Assembly: GCF_014698145.1 (NCBI RefSeq)
Contig: NZ_JACJSM010000001.1
Span: 216,633 to 280,632 of the forward strand
Length of the DNA stretch: 64,000 nt
Direction of reading: 5' to 3'
Source of the DNA: Oscillatoria sp. FACHB-1406
GTDB taxonomy: Bacteria; Cyanobacteriota; Cyanobacteriia; Cyanobacteriales; Spirulinaceae
Shown in pieces: positions 3,481-33,428 of this stretch. The first letter of the stretch is position 1; every line of letters starts with the position of its first letter. The notes beneath the pieces are model-generated. The model ran no database searches and had not been told where the DNA came from. It saw only the letters and a program-made list of their open reading frames with translations. The position numbers and the translations under genes are program-made.

Positions 3481-4497
3481 CTAATTCCCATCGCTAACTC
3501 CCCACTCAAACCCCATTCCCTCAATTTTTTTCAATAGTTCTGGTAGCACGATTTCATTACTCTCTGCTAATAAATCGCTTTCTAAAATTTCACGCGCTCT
3601 CAAAAAAGATTGCGCTCCTATGTGATTTCCGGCATGAAAAACTAGCTTGTCGATTTGATTTAAATGGGCAGCAAGCAATTGAAGCAAAGTCATCAAAACG
3701 CGATTTCCGCCGTAAGCACCGCAGCCCCAGAATCCGGTATGAATAATGACTTGGGGCTTATTAGCCGCCTCGATTTGCGATTCGAGCCTTGCCGCCGCAA
3801 ACCCCGTAAATGCCGTTGAAAGAATGTATTCAATATCTTCTAATAAATATTGTCTGTATCCGCCAAAAGGTGCTTCCATTGCAATCAAATTGGTTCGCGT
3901 TGGCGGATTGAGTTGTGTTGTCGCGCGAGCGATGGCTTCTGGCGATGCTTTCGCAAACTGATTGCCGTACAATCCGTAAGGTCGCCCTGCTTTTTCGTTC
4001 GGTTCGGTAGCAACAGCGCAACGCCGTTCAACTCCTCGGATGAGGATAGGAGTGGGCTGCGCGCTTTCAACGGTAAGGGGTTCGATTGCGGCTGCCAATA
4101 ATGCTTCTCGTAGTGCGCCGAGGGCGGGATGTTCGGCAGCTTGCATCTCATCTTGGGCAAATAACGGCCCACTGTAAGCGCAAAATAGATTGGAGTGGGC
4201 AAAGTTGAGATACCATTCCACTGAGGCATTAGAGGGCGATTCGTAGGTGAAATGGTCTTCGCGAACTTCGAGTTCGGTTTGAATCGGTGTAGGAGCAACG
4301 GTTGGCGGTAAAGGCATCGTTTTCCAACGGGAAAAAACGATTTCACCGCTATGCGTCGCTTCCGGGGGAGAAGCGATGTCAAAAACGATCTTCTTGTTCG
4401 GGTTCTTAACTTTTGGAGGATGAGAATCCATCAAGTTTTGCGCTGCGAAAGTGTGCCGACAGATCGGAGCGTTAGCATCTTGATTCATAGTCTTCAA
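3481..4497 (-). CDS. PARG-like macrodomain protein (poly(ADP-ribose) glycohydrolase family-like), catalytic motif divergent
   Basis: 338 aa. HTGFWGCGAYGGNRVLMTLLQLLAA closely matches the canonical PARG diphosphate-binding loop (NWGCGAFGGD..L..LIQ.LAA). The upstream segment NFAHSNLFCAYSGPLFAQDEM aligns with the PARG GGG-X6-8-QEE catalytic signature but reads CAY...QDE. 31 bp downstream of the GT2 gene on the same strand. Confidence 0.5.
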   Translation of the reverse strand: MKTMNQDANAPICRHTFAAQNLMDSHPPKVKNPNKKIVFDIASPPEATHSGEIVFSRWKTMPLPPTVAPTPIQTELEVREDHFTYESPSNASVEWYLNFAHSNLFCAYSGPLFAQDEMQAAEHPALGALREALLAAAIEPLTVESAQPTPILIRGVERRCAVATEPNEKAGRPYGLYGNQFAKASPEAIARATTQLNPPTRTNLIAMEAPFGGYRQYLLEDIEYILSTAFTGFAAARLESQIEAANKPQVIIHTGFWGCGAYGGNRVLMTLLQLLAAHLNQIDKLVFHAGNHIGAQSFLRAREILESDLLAESNEIVLPELLKKIEGMGFEWGVSDGN

Positions 4498-20591: not shown

Positions 20592-21116
20592 CTAACTATT
20601 TTTGCTGCTCATAACGAAGCGCATCGCCAAAAAACCCAAACCTAATGCCGTCAGGACGATTAAGCCTACCGCCGTCGCCAATACCCAACCGCTAATTTCC
20701 GAAGAACCCTTCGCCGCACTCGGACGGTAGGAAGCCTTCTCTTCCACTTCCATGACCCAGTTTTCGGGCGAAACACTCTGCGAATGGGGCGTTAGGTCTG
20801 CTGGTTCTTCTAGGCGAACCGGCGAAATGACAGGCAGGGGTTTGCCGTACTCGTCGGAACTCGTTACTAACTGCTGCAATTGTTGCGCGGAAACGAACAA
20901 TCGGGTTGCTTCTTGGCGCAAACGGCGATTTTGTTGGAGTAATTGCTGATTTTCGTCTTTGAGAGTGTTTAAGCGTTCTTCTGCTGCCTGTAATTCGTTG
21001 GCGAGTTCGCGGTAGACGCTAATCGGGACGGAGGCGCGGTGGGGAACGTTGGTTGCGTTGATGTTGGCGGGGGCTGTCTTTGTGGATTGGGGAGGTTGAG
21101 TGCGAGTGTTAGACAT
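20592..21116 (-). CDS. coiled-coil protein with C-terminal TM anchor
   Basis: 174 aa. Coiled-coil segment EERLNTLKDENQQLLQQNRRLRQEATRL. C-terminal WVLATAVGLIVLTALGLGFLAM. Confidence 0.45.
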   Translation of the reverse strand: MSNTRTQPPQSTKTAPANINATNVPHRASVPISVYRELANELQAAEERLNTLKDENQQLLQQNRRLRQEATRLFVSAQQLQQLVTSSDEYGKPLPVISPVRLEEPADLTPHSQSVSPENWVMEVEEKASYRPSAAKGSSEISGWVLATAVGLIVLTALGLGFLAMRFVMSSKNS

Positions 21117-21998: not shown

Positions 21999-23300
21999 CT
22001 AGCGTCGGGGGAAACCTCTACGCTTCCGCAGAAATTCGGGAATATCCAATCCCAGCCCGCTCGGATCTTCAGCATTAGCCGTAGGATCGGGAGTGATGGG
22101 GCGGGCGACGGGAGGGGGCGGCGTTGGAGAAGGAACCGAGGATCGCGTTTGAGTTGGGATGGCGCGGGCGGTGGGGGGGTTGGGTTCGCCTTCGCCGCTA
22201 AATCCGGTCGCGATCGCGGTAATCCGAATTTCTCCTTGCATCTTCTCATCGATCACCGCACCAAAAATAATATTGGCATTGGGATCCACCGTTTCATAAA
22301 TCGTCTCGGCGGCTGTATTCACTTCGTGCAGCGTCAAATCGCTGCCGCCCGTAATATTAAACACCACGCCTTTTGCCCCTTCAATCGACGATTCCAACAG
22401 GGGCGAAGAAATAGCCATAATTGCGGCTTCTCGCGCTCGCGACTTGCCCGATCCCGTGCCGATTCCCATCAACGCCGATCCCGCATCTGCCATTACCGCG
22501 CGCACGTCGGCAAAGTCCACGTTCACCAAACCGGGAATAATAATAATATCGGAAATCCCCTGCACTCCTTGTCGCAGCGTATCGTCCGCCACCAAAAAGG
22601 CTTGCTGAACCGGCGTTTCCGGTGCAATCACTTCCAGCAACTTATTGTTGGGGATAATAATCAACGTATCGACTCGACCTTGGAGCGCCGAAACCCCTTC
22701 CTCGGCTTGCGTGGTGCGGCGGCGACCTTCAAATGTAAACGGGCGCGTCACAATTCCCACCGTCAAGCAGCCCATTTCCTTTGCCACTTCGGCTACGATG
22801 GGGGCGGCTCCCGTTCCCGTCCCGCCGCCCATCCCGGAGGTAATAAACACCAAATCCGTATTTTCTAGAGCTTGGGCAATCTCTTCGCGCGACTCTTCTG
22901 CGGCTTTTTGACCGATGGAAGGATTGCCGCCCGCCCCTAAACCGCGCGTCAACTTCTGACCGATTTGCAAGCGTTTGGGGGCAGCACTCATGGCTAAGGC
23001 TTGAGCATCGGTATTAATCGCCCAAAACTCTACGCCCGTGACGTTGCTGGCAATCATGCGGTTGACCGCGTTGCATCCTCCCCCACCAACGCCGATGACT
23101 TTAATTTTAGCGATATTACTGGGGACGATATTATCGCCGCGCAGGGTTTCCCGGTGCATTTCTCGAGGATCGCTGCTCGGAGGGAATGAAAGTCCCGTAC
23201 TGCTAAATGAATAGTTGTTTTCCACGGTGGCTGCCACAGGAGGGGGTTCTGGATGCTCCCCATAAGAAGGGTTCTGCCCTAGTTTACTATTATGTGTCAT
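21999..23300 (-). CDS. ftsZ: cell division GTPase FtsZ
   Basis: [13 protein letters not shown] and tubulin signature [10 protein letters not shown]. Cyanobacterial N- and C-terminal extensions. Confidence 0.95.
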
Positions 23301-23523: not shown

Positions 23524-24381
23524 TTAGCGCAACTGCACGGTTGGAAAATCGGGATTCGTTAGGTCGATGTAGGCAAGGCGAGAAGTTTTAAGGCGAGTTG
23601 GGAGTTCGCGCATTTGAGCGAGCATTTCTAATTGTTTCGTCAAACGCGGCGTACCGGACTGATATTGACCCAAATGAACGATCCCCAATTCGGTTGTGAG
23701 AATTGAGTTACTCCGATTGCGAAAGTCGAGGGCGAAAATTTGAACCGGAGAGTTCCGAACCGCTTGATAAATTTCCGGCCAAGCTAACCTTAACGAGTCA
23801 TCGATTCCCAGTGCTTGAAGTTCCGGGAGGCTAGCTTCTGCTAAAAGCTGGGCGTAATTGCCTTCGGGTAGAAATATTCCTCGTTCGTCTAAAAAGCCTG
23901 TTTCTTGCTGGCTGCGGGAATCGAGGACGCGCGCGACGGGCTGCCGTTCTTTAACCGTGACGGTTAAGCCGGGGGGCAGAAGTTTGCGCGTAACCGTTGC
24001 TTCGGCGATGGGAGGGGCAGACTCCATTTGCTGGCTGAGAACTTGCGGTCGAACCTGCCAAAGGGGTTGAGGATAGGATAGGCGCAGTAGAGTGCGAATC
24101 GCTGTCGGCGAGAGCAGTTGGTTGCCTTCAATGGCGATTTGTTCGGGACGCTCTATCGTCCAATTTAGCTGGGTGAGTCCCCAGGTTAACCCGCCTGCCA
24201 TGCCGCTAACCAAGAGCAATCTCCAGAAAGCTTGCAGCAATTTTAACTGCCGACGGCGTTTGAGTTGCGCGCGACGGGCTTTGAGGTCGTGGGGAGAGAC
24301 TGAGCCAATGCTGGTCAAGGTAAGGTTTTCAGGGTGAGGTTTTCGGGGTTTTAATGAATTGCGCGGAAGGTTGCTCCTCAA
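23524..24381 (-). CDS. ftsQ: cell division protein FtsQ/DivIB-like
   Basis: 285 aa. Basic N-terminus, single TM helix (LLLVSGMAGGLTWGL), then a POTRA-like region. Sits directly upstream of ftsZ as in other cyanobacteria. Confidence 0.65.
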   Translation of the reverse strand: MRSNLPRNSLKPRKPHPENLTLTSIGSVSPHDLKARRAQLKRRRQLKLLQAFWRLLLVSGMAGGLTWGLTQLNWTIERPEQIAIEGNQLLSPTAIRTLLRLSYPQPLWQVRPQVLSQQMESAPPIAEATVTRKLLPPGLTVTVKERQPVARVLDSRSQQETGFLDERGIFLPEGNYAQLLAEASLPELQALGIDDSLRLAWPEIYQAVRNSPVQIFALDFRNRSNSILTTELGIVHLGQYQSGTPRLTKQLEMLAQMRELPTRLKTSRLAYIDLTNPDFPTVQLR

Positions 24382-24595
24382 CTATAGCAGTCTTATTCGT
24401 GAGTGGCTGTGACTTTTCCGGGAGGTTACTCAAATTTTTATTTTTTAAAAGAATAAAATCTTTGACACGCAAGAATTGCGATCGAGATCAATGTTAACGA
24501 CCGCCAGATCGTAAGATGATAGGCAAGCATCAATCTGTACGCTAAAAAAGCCATGTAGCTTAGCTCGGGCTTTATTTCTTCCATCAGGACGCATC

Positions 24596-25924
24596 ATGAA
24601 ATTGCATCTACTAAATTTTTTCAAGGCTTGCAACCCGAGCAAGACCTTGAACTTAAGCAATGCTGAGGATCGGAGCTATTACATCGATTTCTCCTCTGTC
24701 AGGGGAGGAAAGATTGTAGAAGCGCTCGAGCGAACGATTACCCGTCTTTCGCCGGACGAACCGACTTGTCAACTGTTTACCGGACATATCGGCTGCGGGA
24801 AATCGACCGAACTGCTGCGACTCAAAGCATCTTTGGAACAGCAACAATTCCACGTTGTTTATTTTGAGTCGAGTCGGGACTTAGATCTGGCAGATGTTAG
24901 CATTAGCGACATTCTTTTGGCAATCGCGCGATCGGTCAGCGAAAGCTTGGAGGCGGTTGGCATTCACCTCAAACCCGGTTACTTTGGCAACTTGTTTTCC
25001 GAAGTTAAAAATTTCTTGCAAACCCCTATCGAGTTGGATGCGGAAGCAGAACTTTCTGTTGGCATTGCCCGCATCACGGCGCGCACGAAAGAAAGTCCAA
25101 AATTGCGAGAGCAGTTGCGGCAATCCCTGGAACCGCGAGTAGAAGGGATTCTGCGGGCGATTAACGAAGAAATTATGCAGCGCGGCACTCAGGAGTTGAA
25201 ACTGCGCGGCAAGCGTGGATTGGTGGCGATCGTGGATAATTTAGACCGAGTATCGGCACAAATGGCGACTCAGACGCGATCGCTCCCCGAATACATTTTT
25301 ATCGATCGCGGCCCCCAATTGCGCCGCCTGCAATGCCATGTCGTTTACACGCTACCCCTATCGCTGATTTTCTCCAATGAGTTTCAGTCCCTAAAAAACC
25401 GTCTTGGCGGCGGAGTGGCTCCGAAAGTGCTGCCAATGGTTCCGCTATACCAACGCAATGGTAGCGAAAACGTTCGAGGTATGGCGCTGCTGCGTCAACT
25501 CGTCCTTGCTCGCGCCTTTCCAGAGGTCGATCCGCAAACGCGGCTGAGTTTGATTGGCGAAGTAGTAGACCATCCCAGTACGCTCGATCGCCTCTGTTAT
25601 ATTAGCGGCGGCCACGTTCGCACTCTCTTAGGCTTGTTGTTCAACTGCTTGCAACAACAGGATCCGCCTTTTTCCCGACAGTGTATCGAGCAAGCGATCG
25701 ATGCCTATCGCGATGATATCGTCTTGGCCGTCGAAGAAGATGAATGGTCGCTCATTTCCCAAGTCGTCAGCAAACAAATCGTCAAAGGCGAGCAAGAATA
25801 TCAAGCGCTGCTGCGCAGTATGTTCGTATTTGAATATCGCGACGAGGCAGGACGCTGGTTCGGGGTGAATCCCGCTCTAGCTGAAACCGAGCGCTTTAAA
25901 AGCCTGCAAGCAATGGGAGTCTAA
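24596..25924 (+). CDS. stand-alone P-loop NTPase (AAA_16/STAND-like), unknown function
   Basis: 442 aa. Walker A GHIGCGKSTELL. Candidate Walker B LVAIVDNLD. Helical C-terminal half. Confidence 0.6.
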   Translation: MKLHLLNFFKACNPSKTLNLSNAEDRSYYIDFSSVRGGKIVEALERTITRLSPDEPTCQLFTGHIGCGKSTELLRLKASLEQQQFHVVYFESSRDLDLADVSISDILLAIARSVSESLEAVGIHLKPGYFGNLFSEVKNFLQTPIELDAEAELSVGIARITARTKESPKLREQLRQSLEPRVEGILRAINEEIMQRGTQELKLRGKRGLVAIVDNLDRVSAQMATQTRSLPEYIFIDRGPQLRRLQCHVVYTLPLSLIFSNEFQSLKNRLGGGVAPKVLPMVPLYQRNGSENVRGMALLRQLVLARAFPEVDPQTRLSLIGEVVDHPSTLDRLCYISGGHVRTLLGLLFNCLQQQDPPFSRQCIEQAIDAYRDDIVLAVEEDEWSLISQVVSKQIVKGEQEYQALLRSMFVFEYRDEAGRWFGVNPALAETERFKSLQAMGV

Positions 25925-26545
25925 TAAGACGGCGTGTAACTGCTGTTAGGGCGAGGATAGGACGGGTTCTGCTCGCTTATTCCCTCGCTCTTGTCTCAGT
26001 CCGCGTCTAAGCTCTTCTCAGAGTTCGAGCCTAAAACAGCCCGTCTAGTTGAAGAAGCCCGGTCTCAATCCTTGCCACTTCAACACTGGACAGCGTAAAG
26101 AAATAAAACCGATCTGAAGGCAAATCCAAAAGATATTGCTTTATATCATTTTTTTATTTTTGTCAAGCGCTAAAGCTGAACGGGTGAGTTTGAGGAGAAT
26201 CGAGCGGGTTACAAGTCTTTTAACTCGCAGTGTGACGCGGTGCGAGCGATCGCAAAATTAGAACCGTTGCGCGCGTCTATAGCATTTTTCGTTGGCGTGA
26301 GGTACACCACACGGGCGAATGCCATTCGCCCCTACCCATCTAATTTCCATTTTTGTACCCTTATCCATTTGAAAAACGCTATATCCCCAAAAAGCACTTT
26401 CGTTGGCCCGGGACAAAACCATCCCTTGGGTCAAACTCCCGTTCAACCCCATTCCTCGTCTCATTGAACGTCTCAATTCAATGGGGATGTGTTGCGTTAG
26501 CCTACTGCGCCTGCCTCTCTACAATGGCTTCTGCCCCTTGCAACC

Positions 26546-29500
26546 ATGTGTACTACTAACCCCCCCCACCTCGTCAGCCAATCGAACGATCGGTCTCTAT
26601 CGATTCTGGCACGAGCGATTCTCCTCGGTCGCTATCAATTTGCTTTAATTCTCGTGCGCTGTAACTACGAACGATTGCAGCGGCAAATGTGGCAAGGACT
26701 GCAACAGGAGTTGCGCTCTCAATCAGAAGCGGAGGTTCGCTTACGAGAAATTCGCTTTTCTTCCTCTACCCCCGCCCTATTCGATACGCTCCTAAGCGTT
26801 GTTGAAGCGGAAATTGCCGCCCAACCGGAGGAGGCAGCACCTCAACCCTCGCGACGCTGCAATCTAGATGCTTTAATGGTCTTCGGACTGGAATCAGCAG
26901 AAGATTTGGAGCGAGTTTTAGCCGATACCAATCAAGTCCGCGAAGAGTTTCGCAAGCACTTCACCTGTCCGGTGGTGCTGTGGGCGACGGATGAAGTCCT
27001 GCAAAAAATGACCCGTTTCGCGCCAGATTTTAAAAGCTGGGCTTCCGCCGCGATTAAATTCGAGCAGGCCATTGAAGACTCCATCCAACTGTGGTGGGAA
27101 ATTGTTGCTCGCCTGTTTCGAGAACTTTTAGATTCGGGGGCGAAGCGTTTCGTTTCCAACGCCGAGTTGGGGCTTGCGCCAGGAAGCCGCGATCGCCGAG
27201 AATTAGAGTGCGCCCGCTTGGAAGTTCTCGCCGCCCACATCGAGCTATCGGAGATGGTAGAAGCGATTTGGGCGTTTATCCTCGGGCGGGATGCTTACAA
27301 CGAGGGTCGCATCCAAGAAGCGCTAGAACAGTATCAACGCAGTCTCGAGTTTTGGGGGCAAGGATCGGAGGATCGGGTTGCCAATGCAGTACCCTCCGCA
27401 CCCAACATCGCCAATCCATTTTTAGAGCAAAAAGGGCTGCTGCTTTACCATCTCGGTTTGTGCTACTGCTATGAAGCGAGGGAACATCCCAACCGCAGCC
27501 GTCAATGCGCAACTCAGGCGCGCCTTTGCTTCAGCGACAGCTTAGAAATTTTTACCTTAAAAGAGCGTCCCGAAGCGATCGCGAATCTCACCGTTCAACT
27601 CGGTCAAGTGCTGCAACAGCTTGAATACTGGCACGAATTGCAAGCCTTAGCCCGAGGGGCGCTTACCCAAAGCACGATTTATCATACCCCGGAAGTCCGA
27701 GCGCGGGCTTATGGATTTTTAGCGCGTGGGGCGCTGGCTCGAGGCAATCCCGAAGCGGCGAGAATCTTAGCGCTGAAGGCGTTGGGCATTCACGAACGCG
27801 CGTCCACAGCGAATTCGCTAGGAGAAGCCTTGTATTCCTACTTGTTAGCGCGATCGCAATACGAACTCGGCCAGACGATGGAAGCGATCGCGCTTTTGGA
27901 GCGGGCGCGCTCGGCCATTGCACCGAAAACGATCGCGTCCGAGGGCGAAGTCCAACCCACCACAGAGAAAGAAACCCTTTATCTCGAAATCTTGGAAATG
28001 CTGCGATCGCTATACTTCCAGCAGCATCAATACGAACTCGCCTTCACCCTCAAACAAGAGCAGCAGCGAGTCGAGCAAGCCTGCGGGCTGCGGGCTTTCT
28101 ACGGCCTATCTTCCCCCACTGGGGAAGGAGATCGCCTCCCCTCCTACTATCCAACTGAAATCCTCGCTTTCGGTCGCCAGCGAGATGTCGAGGCGCTGCT
28201 AGAACGGGTACGGCGCAGCGAACACAAACTCACGATCCTCCACGGACCTTCGGGGGCGGGCAAAAGCAGCTTGCTGCACGCCGGTCTGGTTCCGGCTTTA
28301 TGGGACGAAATCATCGCCGCTCGCGAAATTCTCCCCGCCATTCAAACGACTTACAATGATTGGCAACAAGGGTTGAGTCGCGCTTTTTCCCGATCGCTGA
28401 CTCTGCGGGAGCGCAAGTTAGGACAGCCCCAAACCCTCCCTGACTTGCTCTCGCCCGCAGCGATTTTAGACTTTCTTCAATCCAGCAGCCAGGGAAATTT
28501 ATTGGTCGTTATTGTTTTCGATCAATTTGAAGAATTCTTTTACAATTGTCCCCAACGCGAAGACAGACGGGCATTTTATCGATTCTTATGCGACAGTTTG
28601 AGCATCCCCTTCGTGAAAGTGATTCTCTGCCTGAGAGAGGATTGCTTGCACGAACTGCTGGCAATGGAACGGGAGATGGATTGGGGGATCGTCGATAACG
28701 ATTTGCTCGATCGCCAAGTGCGTTATGCGCTCGCGGATTTGAGCTTAGAAGCGGCGGCGGGCGTGGTGAAGCGACTGACCGAGCGATCGCACTTTCACCT
28801 CGAAAACGACCTGATCGAGCGTTTTGTCTGCGATTTAGCGGACTCCCAACAGACGATTCGCCCGATCGAATTGCAGGTCGTCGGCAGCGCGCTACAAGCC
28901 GAAAAAATCACCTTACTGCAAGAATATCGGCAGTTGGGCAGCAACCCGAAAACGATTTTAGTCGAACGCTGGTTGCAGTCCGCGATCGCCGACTGCGGCC
29001 CGGAAAACGAAGAAGTCGTCTGGCAGGTTTTATACGCTCTGACCGATTCCCAAGGATTGCGCCTACTGAAAACGCAAGCCGAACTTGCAAGGGCAGTGCG
29101 CTCGGAACGCACCAGGAAGCAGCGTTCGGAAACGCTTCCCAGTCCCCCTCTTACCTCGATCTTAAAAATCCTGGTCGGTTCGGGTTTGGTGTCTCGCCTG
29201 CGGGAAGAGTCCGACGAGCGCTATCAACTCGTTCACGGCTATCTCGTCGGGCGCATTCGCCAACAATATAGCGATCGCACTTCTCGAGCGATCGCCACGC
29301 AACTGAGCGGTAGCAAAGCTGAAGTAACGCGAGCGCGCAAACAGCGCCTTCATGCCCTCACTATTGGCGGTATTTGCGCTCTTTTCGCCCTTAGTGCGGT
29401 TTATTTAAGCTTGCAAACGGAAACCCAACGCCGTTTAGCCACAATCGTCTCTCGCAATGCAGAACTGATGGCGCTTTCTGCCTCCTCCGAAGCACTATTT

Positions 29501-31561
29501 GCTTCTAACCAGGAATTTGAAGCGCTGCTGGAAGGGTTGAGGGCGGTCAAACAATTAAAGGCAGAACCGCCGATTCGCCAGAAACCGTCCTTGCAAGCCT
29601 TGCATTTACCGACCGATACCGCGACGGACATTAAAACCGATACGCGCTTAAAAGTTTTAACCGTTCTCGAACAAGCTTTATACGGAACGTTGGAACGGAA
29701 TCGCTTAGAAGGTCATAGCGATGTCGTCTGGGGGGTCTGTTTTTCGCCGGACGGACAGCGCATTGCAACAGCGAGCTTGGATAGAACGGTTAAGGTTTGG
29801 CATCCTGACGGCCGCCTGCTAACGACACTGTTCGGTCATCGGGATAGCGTCACAAGCGTTGATATCAGTCGGGATGGTAGTATTGCTTCGAGCAGTTGGG
29901 ATGGGACGGTTCGCCTTTGGAACGTTGATGGAACGCCCGATTTGGCGATTCAGGCACATCGGGGCCGCGTCTACAGCGTTCGCTTCAGTCGGGATGGGGA
30001 AATGTTGGCGAGTGCGGGCGCAGATGGAATGGTAAAAATTTGGTCGCGCCAAGGCCGGTTGTTGCAAACTTTATCGGGGCATCGAGGGGAAGTGAGTTGG
30101 GCGAGCTTTAGTCCCGATGGCAGCGAGATTGCTTCCGTGGGACAGGATGGGACGCTGCGCTTGTGGAAGATTGGGGGGCAAGTTGTTAAGGTGGTGCGCG
30201 CTCATCAGGAGGCGGCGAACTATGTGGTTTTTAGCCCGAAGGGAGATGTGCTGGCGACGGCGGGCGAGGATCGCGCCGTGAAGCTTTGGAGTCGGGATGG
30301 GCGCTTACTGCGGGTACTGTCGGGGCATCAGGGTAGCGTTCACGCGATCGCGTTTAGTCCCGATGGCCAACGGTTGGCTTCGGCGAGTAATGACAATACG
30401 ATCGCGCTCTGGAACCGTCAGGGGCGTTTGTCGAGCGTGTTGAAGGGACATAGCGATCGCGTTACGGGCGTGGGCTTCAGTCCGGATGGGCTGACGCTGG
30501 TGTCTTCGAGTTTCGACAAGACGATTAAGCTCTGGACGCTCCAGAAGCGCTCCCGCGTCGTACTGCGAGGACATCGCGATCGCGTCCTGGATGTTGTCTT
30601 TTCTCCCGATGGGGATATAGTGGCCACCGCGAGCAAGGATAAAACCGCAAAGTTGTGGACGCGCCAAGGACAATTGCTGGCAACTTTAAGCGGACACCGC
30701 GATTCGGTGTTAGCGGTTGCTTTTTCGCCCGATGGCGAGCGAGTCGCCACCGCGAGTAAGGATAAAAGCGTGAAAGTGTGGACGCGGCGGGGGCAATTGT
30801 TACAAACGCTTTCCGGTCACGGGGATTGGGTTCTGGATGTGGAGTGGTCGCCCGACGGTCAATGGTTAGCAACGGCGAGTCGCGATAAAACCGTGAAATT
30901 ATGGAGCCGCGAGGGGAAATTGCGTCAAACTTTGAGCGGACACCGCGATCGCGTTAATGCGGTTGCGTTTAATGCCGACGGTAGCTTACTGGCTTCCGCC
31001 AGCGACGATCGCACGATTAAGCTTTGGCGCTTCCACCGGAAGTTGCGTAGCGGCAGGCCAGAAGATGGGGCTTTTGACCCGCAACCGCTCTCAACGTTGA
31101 AAGGGCATAGCAACTGGGTTCTCGATGTTACTTTTTTGCCGCCGCGAGCCGATGGTCGTGCTTCTCCCCTTTTGGCTTCTGCGAGTTACGATAACACCGT
31201 CAAATTTTGGAGCGATCGCGAAATGCTTTACACGCTCAAAGGTCATACCGATAGCGTTGCCCATCTCAGCTTTAACCCCACGGGCGAAATTTTGGCGACT
31301 ACAACTTGGAGCAGCGAAGTCCAATTATGGCGATTAGACGATACTCTGCTTAAAACCCTCGAAGGTCATAGCGATCGCGCCACCAGCGTGGCTTGGAGCC
31401 AAGATGGAAACGCCCTCGCCACCGCCAGCGAGGATAAAACCGCGATAATTTGGAATTTTGATGAGGAACAATTGGCTAAAAATGCTTGCGATTGGCTCCG
31501 CAATTACATTCACAATAGCAATGAAGTCAGGAGGAGCGATCGCCAATTGTGTACGTCATAA
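26546..31561 (+). CDS. giant nSTAND-type NTPase / WD40-repeat protein
   Basis: 1671 aa. ~550-aa helical/TPR-like N-terminal region. P-loop GPSGAGKSSLLHAGLVPAL. Hydrophobic helix LTIGGICALFALSAVYLSL. Then ~14-16 WD40 repeats (GH..V..V.FSPDG...AS.S.D.T.KLW), two 7-bladed propellers, from ~29700. Confidence 0.85.
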   Translation: MCTTNPPHLVSQSNDRSLSILARAILLGRYQFALILVRCNYERLQRQMWQGLQQELRSQSEAEVRLREIRFSSSTPALFDTLLSVVEAEIAAQPEEAAPQPSRRCNLDALMVFGLESAEDLERVLADTNQVREEFRKHFTCPVVLWATDEVLQKMTRFAPDFKSWASAAIKFEQAIEDSIQLWWEIVARLFRELLDSGAKRFVSNAELGLAPGSRDRRELECARLEVLAAHIELSEMVEAIWAFILGRDAYNEGRIQEALEQYQRSLEFWGQGSEDRVANAVPSAPNIANPFLEQKGLLLYHLGLCYCYEAREHPNRSRQCATQARLCFSDSLEIFTLKERPEAIANLTVQLGQVLQQLEYWHELQALARGALTQSTIYHTPEVRARAYGFLARGALARGNPEAARILALKALGIHERASTANSLGEALYSYLLARSQYELGQTMEAIALLERARSAIAPKTIASEGEVQPTTEKETLYLEILEMLRSLYFQQHQYELAFTLKQEQQRVEQACGLRAFYGLSSPTGEGDRLPSYYPTEILAFGRQRDVEALLERVRRSEHKLTILHGPSGAGKSSLLHAGLVPALWDEIIAAREILPAIQTTYNDWQQGLSRAFSRSLTLRERKLGQPQTLPDLLSPAAILDFLQSSSQGNLLVVIVFDQFEEFFYNCPQREDRRAFYRFLCDSLSIPFVKVILCLREDCLHELLAMEREMDWGIVDNDLLDRQVRYALADLSLEAAAGVVKRLTERSHFHLENDLIERFVCDLADSQQTIRPIELQVVGSALQAEKITLLQEYRQLGSNPKTILVERWLQSAIADCGPENEEVVWQVLYALTDSQGLRLLKTQAELARAVRSERTRKQRSETLPSPPLTSILKILVGSGLVSRLREESDERYQLVHGYLVGRIRQQYSDRTSRAIATQLSGSKAEVTRARKQRLHALTIGGICALFALSAVYLSLQTETQRRLATIVSRNAELMALSASSEALFASNQEFEALLEGLRAVKQLKAEPPIRQKPSLQALHLPTDTATDIKTDTRLKVLTVLEQALYGTLERNRLEGHSDVVWGVCFSPDGQRIATASLDRTVKVWHPDGRLLTTLFGHRDSVTSVDISRDGSIASSSWDGTVRLWNVDGTPDLAIQAHRGRVYSVRFSRDGEMLASAGADGMVKIWSRQGRLLQTLSGHRGEVSWASFSPDGSEIASVGQDGTLRLWKIGGQVVKVVRAHQEAANYVVFSPKGDVLATAGEDRAVKLWSRDGRLLRVLSGHQGSVHAIAFSPDGQRLASASNDNTIALWNRQGRLSSVLKGHSDRVTGVGFSPDGLTLVSSSFDKTIKLWTLQKRSRVVLRGHRDRVLDVVFSPDGDIVATASKDKTAKLWTRQGQLLATLSGHRDSVLAVAFSPDGERVATASKDKSVKVWTRRGQLLQTLSGHGDWVLDVEWSPDGQWLATASRDKTVKLWSREGKLRQTLSGHRDRVNAVAFNADGSLLASASDDRTIKLWRFHRKLRSGRPEDGAFDPQPLSTLKGHSNWVLDVTFLPPRADGRASPLLASASYDNTVKFWSDREMLYTLKGHTDSVAHLSFNPTGEILATTTWSSEVQLWRLDDTLLKTLEGHSDRATSVAWSQDGNALATASEDKTAIIWNFDEEQLAKNACDWLRNYIHNSNEVRRSDRQLCTS

Positions 31562-31741: not shown

Positions 31742-32293
31742 TCATTCTTCATCGAAGTCGGCGCGAATTAATTCTACGGCATCGCGTCCGTCGCTTTCTT
31801 GCAAGTATACCTTCACTTTTTCTTCGGCTGCTGTTGGCAGTTGTTTGCCGATAAAATCGGGGTGAATGGGCAGTTGGCGATGGCCGCGATCGATTAAAAC
31901 AGTCAAACCGATAATTTCGGGTCGTCCGTATTCTAAAACGGCATTGAGGGCGGCTCTAGCAGTGCGTCCTTTAAAAATAACATCATCGACTAAAATGACA
32001 ACTTTATCGGTCAAGTCGAAGGGAATTTGAGTTTTGGCGGGGGTTCGCATTCCGACGCGATCGAGATCGTCTCGATAAAGGGTAATATCGATCGCGCCAA
32101 CGGGAATTTTAATGCCTTCAAGCAGTTCGATTTGAGCCGCGATCGCGCGAGCGAGGGGAACGCCGCGCGTATGAATACCGAGCAAAACCAACTTAGTCGG
32201 CTCGTCGAATTTTTCCACAACTTGCGACGCAATCCGATTCAAGGTTCTGCGAATTTCTTCAGCCGAGAGAATTTCAATAATTTTAGCTGGCAT
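31742..32293 (-). CDS. pyrR: bifunctional pyr operon regulator / uracil phosphoribosyltransferase PyrR
   Basis: [24 protein letters not shown]...; PRPP-binding [19 protein letters not shown]. Start taken at the internal ATG (32293) rather than the track's 32353. Confidence 0.85.
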
Positions 32294-32357
32294 TTTTTGT
32301 ATTAAACAAAGATTGGATATTTGCCCGATCGCGAATTCCCAAATTTTAAACAAGTGA

Positions 32358-33428
32358 TTAAGAAGGTTTTTGACCGTTGTTTTTAAAAAATTCTGCTCGC
32401 AACTCTTCTAATTCTAGATCGATCGCGTTAGCTGTGGTAATTGTAGGAGGCGGCGAAGGCGGAGAAGACTTTGGAGGTTTCGGCTGCACGAATTGACTGC
32501 GAATTCGCTCGATCTCAAAATCTAAGTTGCTCGTACCGTCTGGCAATTGATAAGGCTTTTGGACATCGCTGAGAACATCTCTCGCCGATTGATAGCGCTG
32601 ACTCGGAATAGGGTGTAACATTTTATCGAGGACTCTAGCGAGAGGCTCGCTAACGGGGTTGGGAAGCTGACCGTGCCAAGTCCAAACGCCTTCGTAAGAG
32701 TCGAAGAGATTGCTAGGAGCGATACCTGTGAGTAAGTGAATGCAAGTTACGCCGAGACTGTAAAGATCGCTTGCATAAGTCGCGCGTCCGAGGGCTTGTT
32801 CTGGCGGGATGTAGCCCATCGAACCAATCGCAGTTCCCGTTTGCATCGAACCGTCCGCATCTACACCCTTTGCTGCCCCAAAATCAACCAGGAACAGTCG
32901 TTCGTCGCTACGTCGGAGAATAATATTAGCTGGTTTAATATCGCGGTGAACGACTTGATGTTGGTGGACGAACTCGAGGACGGGCAATAAATCTTTGAGT
33001 AGGGCGCGAATTTGCGTTTCGCTAAAGGAACCGTTAGCGGCTAATTCTTGGGCGAGATCGTCTCCTTCAATAAATTCTTGCACTAAATATTGGCGATCGC
33101 CCTGAAAAAAATACGCCATCAGATCGGGGATTTGCTCGTGTCTGCCTAAAATATCGAGTTGGACTGCCTCTCGCTCGAACATTTGCGCCGCTTTTTCCAG
33201 CGATTGCTGCTTCTGGACTTGCGGTAACAATTGTTTGATAACGCAGTAGGGTTTAGAAGGTTTATCTTCATCAACCGCGAGGAAGGTTCGCCCAAATCCC
33301 CCTTGTCCGATGGGGCGCAGCGCGCGATATCGTTCTTTCAGGCGCAAAGGACTGCCGCAGGCATGACAAAATTGACTGGGAGAGGGGTTGTGAGGATGAG
33401 AGCAATTGGGATTGAGACAGTAGCTCAT
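32358..33428 (-). CDS. Ser/Thr protein kinase with N-terminal zinc ribbon
   Basis: N-terminus [17 protein letters not shown]. Kinase motifs [14 protein letters not shown] and APE-like PPE. Pro-rich C-terminus. Confidence 0.85.

Follow-up and report, generated by a model that had tools for sequence, protein, structure and literature searches.

Bacterial STAND/NLR proteins are now studied almost wholly as mobile antiviral sensors. Here we describe a pair of NTPase genes, A and B, that lie immediately beside the cell division genes ftsQ and ftsZ in a 64,000-nt stretch of DNA (positions 216,633 to 280,632 of contig NZ_JACJSM010000001.1; hereafter, the window) from the cyanobacterium Oscillatoria sp. 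FACHB-1406. Gene A encodes a predicted small P-loop NTPase, and gene B encodes a STAND-type giant with C-terminal WD40 repeats. Comparison of related loci places the window copy of the pair in a separate orthologous lineage, one that is inherited vertically under strong constraint and usually sits head-to-head with ftsQ–ftsZ, and this copy lacks every hallmark of a defense system that could be tested.

The closest described relatives of B are the nSTAND1 NTPases, which were defined in conflict systems enriched in multicellular prokaryotes and carry WD40, TPR, or FGE repeats (Kaur, Burroughs, Iyer, and Aravind, 2020/2021; PMC8195603, PMC7159879). B resembles these proteins in its PF20703 match, its Walker motifs, and its C-terminal WD40 repeats, and the B family has in common with them multicellular cyanobacterial hosts and, around its plasmid paralogs, conflict-type neighborhoods. 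In contrast to them, B lacks an effector-associated domain (EAD) and any effector, caspase, or trypsin partner, has a second, KAP-like NTPase as its obligatory companion, begins with a new α/β domain followed by TPR, and harbors a predicted transmembrane (TM) helix between the NTPase and the WD40 repeats; its lineage also differs in being vertical, strongly constrained, and syntenic with ftsQ–ftsZ. Avs and bNACHT proteins share with B the tripartite logic of an N-terminal domain, a STAND NTPase, and a C-terminal repeat sensor. However, no nuclease, protease, TIR, or SIR2 effector was found in B, its sensor is built from WD40 rather than TPR-like repeats and is conserved rather than variable, and A and B form a two-gene layout outside a defense island. 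The closest bacterial relatives of Apaf-1 have been reported in cyanobacteria (PMC13581612). The AP-ATPases of the Apaf-1/apoptosome type combine, like B, a STAND NTPase with two WD40 propellers as the sensor, but the NTPase of B is of the nSTAND1 type, with no CARD or caspase (NB-ARC, CARD, and Peptidase_C14 were absent among the Pfam matches listed for the B NTPase segment and N-region), and its predicted TM helix would leave the propellers on the far side of the membrane and so preclude a WD40-on-NOD clamp of the Apaf-1 type.

Pairing, synteny, and inheritance of A and B

When one genome per species was scanned, relatives of gene A turned up at 594 places at least, and the best 80 loci were analyzed. 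The titles of these loci are nearly all cyanobacterial, and the named genera, which include Oscillatoria, Spirulina, Coleofasciculus, Moorena, Stenomitos, Limnothrix, Phormidium, Kastovskya, and many Nostocales, are largely filamentous. An earlier reading of the window made from the letters alone (the sequence-only reading) had set the co-occurrence of the two genes in other genomes as the check on their association, and they do co-occur: a B with all of its parts lies 3′ of A in 70 of the 72 loci that extend at least 2.5 kb downstream, and B is intact, at 1620–1815 aa, wherever the contig allows. In 67 of 77 loci, A has a divergent ftsQ on its upstream side. Past ftsZ (thiD in the window) and past B (a phosphoribosyltransferase and a kinase in the window) the gene content is not conserved, so that the conserved block is exactly ftsZ–ftsQ / A–B. 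The same block is present in Arthrospira. In Nostocales, psbO follows just 3′ of B, an adjacency seen neither in the window nor in Oscillatoriales. The A–B gap ranges from 42 to 1197 nt across orthologous loci (42–260 nt in most Nostocales and 170–1200 nt in other orders), and the spacer between ftsQ and A, at 156–3123 nt, is not conserved. Because the gene order of Nostoc FACHB-152, ftsZ–ftsQ / A–B–psbO, fits the positions of psbO (all3854) and ftsQ (alr3857) in Anabaena PCC 7120, the orthologs of A and B in that strain are predicted to be all3856 and all3855, respectively.

The association also extends beyond the orthologous loci. Nostoc T09 and 106C each carry a duplicate of the whole pair (L079, L080), and distant A-like genes, with 47–60% identity, are again followed by a B-like giant. 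In a Crocosphaera-labeled metagenome-assembled genome (MAG), A precedes a five-part B with a gap of 13 nt; on the Acaryochloris marina plasmid pREB2 the reading frames of A and a five-part B overlap by 4 nt; and the Nostoc ATCC 53789 plasmid pNsp_c likewise carries A and then a five-part B. The link between A-type and nSTAND1-type NTPases recurs in other layouts, since one protein (P0187) joins an A-like sequence to an nSTAND1-like one, and another (P0171), with an AAA_16–TPR–A-like arrangement, adjoins a 420-aa nSTAND1 gene. Since B accompanies A in 70 of 72 loci, has been duplicated together with it, and recurs beside it in distant paralogs with near-abutting or overlapping frames, A and B are, as judged from gene order, one predicted functional two-gene module.

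The lineage has evolved in step with ftsZ. Across 55 complete loci, the divergence of every part of A and B follows that of FtsZ (Spearman 0.94–0.96). Gene A is about as conserved as FtsZ, with mean pairwise identities of 0.84 and 0.87 and median dN/dS values (nonsynonymous over synonymous rate, NG86, up to 13 close pairs with 9–13 usable per gene) of 0.046 and 0.031, respectively. The corresponding values are 0.64 and 0.135 for FtsQ, 0.66 and 0.123 for the N-region of B, 0.69 and 0.106 for its nSTAND1 module, and 0.70 and 0.126 for its WD40 region, and the linker of B has a median dN/dS of 0.109. Because divergence tracks FtsZ and dN/dS is low, the pair has been inherited vertically under purifying selection. 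The WD40 region is conserved at least as well as the rest of B, which argues against a diversifying phage sensor. In a midpoint-rooted neighbor-joining tree of A, all 70 ftsQ-linked sequences group in a single clade that also contains 10 rearranged or short-contig loci, and every plasmid, TIR-fused, or other paralog lies outside it. The second, diverged pairs of Nostoc sp. T09 and Nostoc sp. 106C (65% identity for A, 34% for the B N-region) are not beside ftsQ and are also outside this core clade; both strains keep an ftsQ-linked pair as well (L069, L071). Two marine cyanobacterial genomes (L020, L023) carry a core-clade A within 10 kb of which there is no B and no ftsQ.

Architecture of the two proteins

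Both open reading frames lie exactly where the sequence-only reading had placed them, with the lengths it gave, and they are real genes rather than chance reading frames, because their homologs number in the thousands and dN/dS is well under 1. The coordinates of the genes and of their protein features are collected in Table 1.

Gene A is predicted to be a soluble, minimal NTPase with neither a sensor nor an effector domain; its product shares 100% identity with the “P-loop NTPase fold protein” recorded for Oscillatoria sp. FACHB-1406. The Walker A and Walker B motifs quoted in the sequence-only reading are present, and D214, N215, L216, D217, and R218 of the latter region are invariant in 16 homologs; the form of this Walker B is one that we take to resemble that of NACHT-type STANDs. 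The profile search proposed in that reading supports its view of the 442-aa protein as a second, small P-loop NTPase, returning AAA_22 (31.9 bits, cutoff 27) and, marginally, KAP_NTPase (22.9 bits, cutoff 20; aa 39–227), with ATPase_2 and nSTAND5 scoring under their cutoffs. A helical insert of approximately 100 residues separates Walker A from Walker B, and the C-terminal 160 residues are helical with a β-hairpin at the end, giving a winged-helix-like appearance. No TM segment was found, the highest 19-residue Kyte–Doolittle mean being 1.32. The KAP family (PF07693), which includes the phage-exclusion protein PifA, is similar to A in the marginal threshold pass and the long insert between the Walker motifs, and “KAP family” is among the names that A bears in public records. 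However, the insert of KAP proteins is typically membrane embedded, and A would lack such a membrane insert because it contains no hydrophobic segment. The AlphaFold2 model of A is poor (predicted local distance difference test score, pLDDT, 61), having been built from a shallow alignment of 16 sequences with 72–82% identity; its nearest Foldseek matches, archaeal Cdc6/Orc1 (E 4e-4, TM-score 0.21–0.25), were not relied on. The A profile gave no match among PDB sequences, and the NCBIfam search of A reached Hda at noise level (E 0.08).

Gene B encodes a five-part protein. The nSTAND1 module scores 103.4–106.2 bits with PF20703 (cutoff 27.1), in agreement with the earlier description of the giant as a STAND-type NTPase with C-terminal WD40 repeats, and the P-loop quoted there, GPSGAGKSSLLHAGLVPAL from aa 567, is present. 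The residues of Walker A (GxxGxGKS) and Walker B (hhhhDQFEE) occur at frequencies of 0.8–1.0 among 30 orthologs. The WD40 array was also correctly recognized, although its estimated 15 blades proved to be 14 repeats, counted as 14 Pfam stretches and confirmed by reading the translation directly. The hydrophobic helix noted earlier lies at aa 938–956; it is directly preceded by RARKQR, with basic residues on its N side, and a hydrophobic helix recurs in the corresponding place in most of the 30 orthologs and in plasmid-borne paralogs. From this hydropathy profile we infer that B is a single-pass membrane STAND (NLR-like) protein.

The N-region of B, taken as a helical domain of about 550 aa in the sequence-only reading, is helical in part. 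Its AlphaFold2 model (pLDDT 87.7) contains a TPR-like solenoid, the nearest structures of which are Pins/LGN, Rap phosphatases, NprR, and MalT domain III, but the first 175 residues form a five-stranded α/β domain with the motifs LILVRCNY, MVFGLES, TNQVREEF, PVVLW, and APDFKSWA. This domain has no match in Pfam or among PDB sequences; its invariant residues are C39, N40, N129, Q130, R132, and W146. The earlier reading had proposed a search of the N-region for a cryptic effector domain. Pfam and PDB searches found no nuclease, protease, TIR, SIR2, or similar effector there; yet the region is more than the TPR scaffold that had been raised as the alternative, and the α/β domain may have an enzymatic role. 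A profile search with this domain retrieved 431 proteins, and about half of the best matches are stand-alone proteins of 160–170 aa. Because a stand-alone family exists, the α/β domain is an autonomous one, and it constitutes a domain family new to the Pfam and PDB classification. The stand-alone protein, of about 165 aa, is widespread in cyanobacteria and has 40–46% identity to aa 1–170 of B. In two lineages (L086–L089, 7001–7495; L091–L093, 6001–6498) its gene is followed, about 118 nt on, by one for an RlaP-family (PF10127) nucleotidyltransferase; in a third (L094, 6001–6501) no RlaP-family gene follows. One further candidate for a stand-alone α/β protein, P0446, was rejected as the N-terminal piece of a frameshifted B in one Arthrospira assembly. 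The B ortholog of Arthrospira platensis NCB002 (L090, 7001–12191) consists of overlapping reading frames of 190 and 1546 aa, reflecting a frameshift or an assembly error.

Table 1. Genes and protein features of the A–B locus, in window coordinates
Feature	Residues	Position (nt)	Strand	Remarks
Gene A	1–442	24596–25924	+	442 aa, ATG; predicted soluble P-loop NTPase, KAP/STAND-like layout
A–B intergenic gap		25925–26545	.	621 nt
Gene B	1–1671	26546–31561	+	1671 aa, ATG; five-part protein
ftsQ		23524–24381	−	POTRA_1; divergent neighbor of gene A, in conserved block
ftsZ		21999–23300	−	Tubulin + FtsZ_C; in conserved block
A, Walker A (GHIGCGKST)	63–71	24782–24808	+	Invariant in 16 homologs
A, Walker B region (LVAIVDNLD)	209–217	25220–25246	+	Form hhhhDxhD
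B, α/β domain, five-stranded	1–175	26546–27070	+	AlphaFold2 pLDDT >90 over most
B, TPR-like helical solenoid	176–513	27071–28084	+	AlphaFold2
B, nSTAND1 NTPase module	542–901	28169–29248	+	PF20703, E 3e-29/4e-30
B, Walker A (GPSGAGKSS)	567–575	28244–28270	+	Within nSTAND1 module
B, Walker B (VVIVFDQFEE)	654–663	28505–28534	+	Within nSTAND1 module
B, single predicted TM helix	938–956	29357–29413	+	Kyte–Doolittle 2.03
B, 14 WD40 repeats, two seven-bladed propellers	~1052–1650	29699–31495	+	Pfam WD40, E 3e-149

Conflict-type relatives and the possible role of the pair

An exhaustive profile-free search found 2565 clusters related to A, 321 of them with E < 1e-30; all that bear names are cyanobacterial, and a search of phage genomes found no homolog of A. 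Outside the core clade, several members occur in mobile or conflict-type surroundings. The pREB2 pair has HicAB, RelE/ParE, integrases, and a NACHT gene as neighbors on its flanks, and the pNsp_c pair adjoins TnpB. Plasmid4 of Calothrix sp. NIES-4101 (L096, 9001–16508) encodes A, a fusion of an A-like protein to TIR_2, and a 1300-aa B-like protein that comprises α/β, TPR, and nSTAND1 parts, ends shortly after a TM helix, and has no WD40 repeats. A Xenococcaceae MAG encodes A, an α/β::A fusion, and a B-like protein with all parts except the TM helix. This fusion (P0200) was considered as a Rosetta-stone link between the α/β domain and A and was downgraded: it occurs in one MAG, and since its α/β domain is nearly identical to that of the adjacent B gene, it is best explained as a product of local tandem duplication. 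Two metagenomic proteins (P0247, P0258), in which a truncated A-like N terminus is joined to internal pieces of the B N-region, are probably A–B deletions or assembly artifacts.

The sequence-only reading had pointed to an Avs-type antiviral role, or a role in another conflict system, for the giant. That suggestion has some footing in the wider family, given the plasmid pairs with toxin–antitoxin and integrase genes and the one TIR variant, but it finds no support at the window locus. PADLOC found no match to Avs or any other defense system for A or B; for B it returned the generic HEAT-ARM_XIII, through the WD40 repeats, and LmuB at noise level, and for A weak matches to mad8 and PDC-S20 (E 1e-4 to 1e-2). 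The features that mark Avs-type systems, namely a defense-island or mobile context, patchy distribution, and a diversifying sensor, are not those of the window copy, and a mobile or defense-like context is confined to plasmid paralogs outside the core clade. Among the window neighbors of A–B no mobile element or defense gene was found, the surroundings being those of a housekeeping chromosome. The conservation and vertical inheritance of the pair, the lack of an effector or PADLOC match, and the housekeeping neighborhood thus make an Avs-type reading a poor fit for this copy.

The reading that we favor, with moderate confidence, is that A and B constitute a vertically fixed, NLR-like, two-NTPase membrane receptor module, whose connection to division or the envelope is speculative. 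The α/β–TPR–nSTAND1 half of B would be cytoplasmic and the two WD40 propellers would lie across the membrane, in the periplasm or lumen. Because the predicted sensor would be separated from the NOD by the membrane, an intramolecular sensor-on-NOD clamp would be impossible, and activation would proceed by clustering or through the TPR: binding or clustering on the WD40 side, or engagement of the TPR by a cytoplasmic ligand, could switch nSTAND1 and lead to oligomerization. Oligomerized B might then recruit its partner NTPase, A, or act as a template for it, much as in a sensor/helper NLR pair. As no effector is attached in the core lineage, the output would probably be protein–protein signaling; in the plasmid relatives the A-type partner can bring a TIR effector with it. 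Since the part that would bind the ligand is conserved rather than diversifying, the likeliest cue is a self or envelope feature that is itself conserved, rather than a phage protein. What the module would serve is a matter of speculation; cell division, septum, or envelope control is suggested by the divergent pairing with ftsQ–ftsZ, which is conserved across orders.

Two described arrangements offer parallels. Paired sensor/helper NLRs (NAIP–NLRC4; plant RGA4/RGA5 and the NRC network) are, like A and B, two co-encoded and co-inherited STAND-type NTPases, one large with sensor repeats and the other minimal, and in one paralog of our pair the small partner carries a TIR domain. The likeness is an analogy, however, with no homology past the P-loop class. 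Receptor kinases of the PknB–PASTA type have the same topology as that predicted for B, with a cytoplasmic switch, one TM helix, and large outside C-terminal repeats, but the switch of B is a STAND NTPase and not a kinase.

Several points weigh against the receptor-module reading. The link to division consists of gene order, and no homology of A or B to a known divisome protein was found in Pfam or NCBIfam. The pair is away from ftsQ in 10 of 77 loci, among them those of the closest relatives (Spirulinaceae, ESFC-1). A is found with no adjacent B in L020 and L023, and a Microcoleus-type paralog is solo; A can therefore be encoded apart from B. The best 80 loci are the top matches to A and hence are biased to the orthologous lineage, the neighbor-joining tree carries no support values, and the model of A is of low confidence. 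The topology of B comes from hydropathy, and the Xenococcaceae paralog that keeps WD40 repeats without a TM helix is awkward for an obligatory extracytoplasmic sensor. We found no experiment or publication on the function of the pair, and no description of it in the literature, including the papers that defined nSTAND1; the tags all3855 and all3856 are likewise absent from the searchable literature. In public records A is named “P-loop NTPase fold,” “KAP family,” “AAA family ATPase,” or “hypothetical,” and B is named “WD repeat” or “hypothetical.”

The clear conflict-system traits of the wider family (plasmids, toxin–antitoxin and integrase neighbors, the TIR fusion) count against the receptor-module reading as well, in that they lend some probability to the core copy acting in immunity or cell death. 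The core pair might thus be an entrenched chromosomal innate-immune or programmed-cell-death system, in which B senses infection or envelope damage and A acts as helper or executor; activation would kill or arrest the infected cell and so protect the filament, and the conservation would reflect the guarding of a host target, possibly the divisome next door. We regard this as possible while on balance doubting it. It draws on the conflict systems in which nSTAND1 was defined, on the surroundings of the pREB2 and pNsp_c pairs and the Calothrix TIR_2 fusion, and on the largely filamentous genera among the named hosts of the core lineage. It is difficult to reconcile with the tight correlation with FtsZ divergence, the strong purifying selection, and a presumed sensor conserved as much as the NTPase, or with the housekeeping neighbors and a core clade set apart from all mobile paralogs; moreover, the searches found no effector domain (Pfam, PDB), no PADLOC system, and no phage-borne homolog. 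An extension of the receptor-module reading would make the ftsQ-linked pair a domesticated NLR-like complex whose WD40 propellers read a septal or periplasmic cue and which signals to the divisome through NTP-dependent oligomerization. The pair would then be a checkpoint on division or on the integrity of the filament, specific to filamentous cyanobacteria, and its origin would lie in a mobile conflict system that persists on plasmids of cyanobacteria. We offer this as a tentative proposal that is more probably wrong than right.

A role in structure or assembly rather than division, with the pair serving envelope, septal-junction, or thylakoid complexes, for example, as scaffold or chaperone, its NTPases as assembly switches, and the ftsQ adjacency as an accident, seems unlikely to us. 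TPR and WD40 repeats are generic scaffolds, psbO adjoins B in Nostocales, and the pair persists in the loci that lack ftsQ synteny, but there is no specific pointer to any such complex, the psbO adjacency is absent from the window and from Oscillatoriales, and divergently oriented genes seldom stay together across orders unless they are linked in function or regulation. Very improbable is the idea that A is an ORC/Cdc6- or DnaA/Hda-like AAA+ DNA-binding regulator of the promoter region it shares with ftsQ, B being unrelated. The Cdc6/Orc1 and noise-level Hda matches and the divergent orientation to ftsQ would fit it; the low pLDDT and TM-scores of about 0.2, the variable ftsQ–A spacer, and the pairing of B with A in nearly all loci and also in paralogs without ftsQ do not. 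Finally, adjacency of A and B by chance, with no joint function, might be read from the 621-nt gap in the window and from loci with A and no B (L020, L023, L082), but it is effectively refuted by the frequency of the pairing, the duplication as a unit, and the plasmid copies with overlapping or near-abutting frames.

These comparisons identify one two-NTPase, NLR-like lineage as a core gene pair in many filamentous cyanobacteria, head-to-head with ftsQ–ftsZ. Set against its plasmid relatives, this core copy would offer a concrete case of an immune-type switch that has either been domesticated for cell biology or become entrenched as an indispensable suicide or immunity module in a multicellular bacterium. 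The nearest relatives of the pair retain a conflict-system character on plasmids, one of them including a TIR domain. Both genes should be directly testable in genetically tractable strains, through the predicted all3856 and all3855 of Anabaena PCC 7120.

Surroundings of the locus

The ftsQ–ftsZ genes named by the sequence-only reading were confirmed by their domain matches; ftsQ is separated from A by 214 nt and transcribed divergently, with ftsZ behind it. Other genes in the window include thiD, an aminoacyl-tRNA synthetase gene, uvrC, adhE, clpB, and genes for a porin and a P-type ATPase. Because 621 nt lie between A and B, their co-transcription is not assured in this genome. A terminator-like site or hairpin was looked for in this gap and in the ftsQ–A region and none was found, nor did Rfam give a match in either. 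The ftsQ–A and A–B intergenic regions show no nucleotide or translated conservation relative to other loci, and promoter-like sites occur in them at chance level. An AT-rich 16-mer (TCAAATTTTTATTTTT and variants) is present once upstream of A (24430–24445) and twice in the A–B gap (26146–26161 and 26339–26354), with TTGACA-like boxes after the first two copies; these may mark separate promoters for A and B or may be due to chance.

A Ser/Thr protein kinase gene (32358–33428, − strand) and a phosphoribosyltransferase gene (31742–32353, − strand) converge on the 3′ end of B and are not kept beside it in related loci. Two genes past ftsZ, adjoining thiD, lies a gene for a 174-aa protein (20592–21116, − strand), for which Pfam gave weak coiled-coil-type matches only. 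At 3481–4497 (− strand), in housekeeping surroundings, the window encodes a 338-aa protein with a PARG-type macro domain (PF05028, E 2e-11). In the Arthrospira platensis NCB002 locus, the region past ftsZ (L090, 1–2354) contains a separate conflict-type pair consisting of a Peptidase_C14 (caspase-like) gene and an nSTAND1–pentapeptide-repeat gene.

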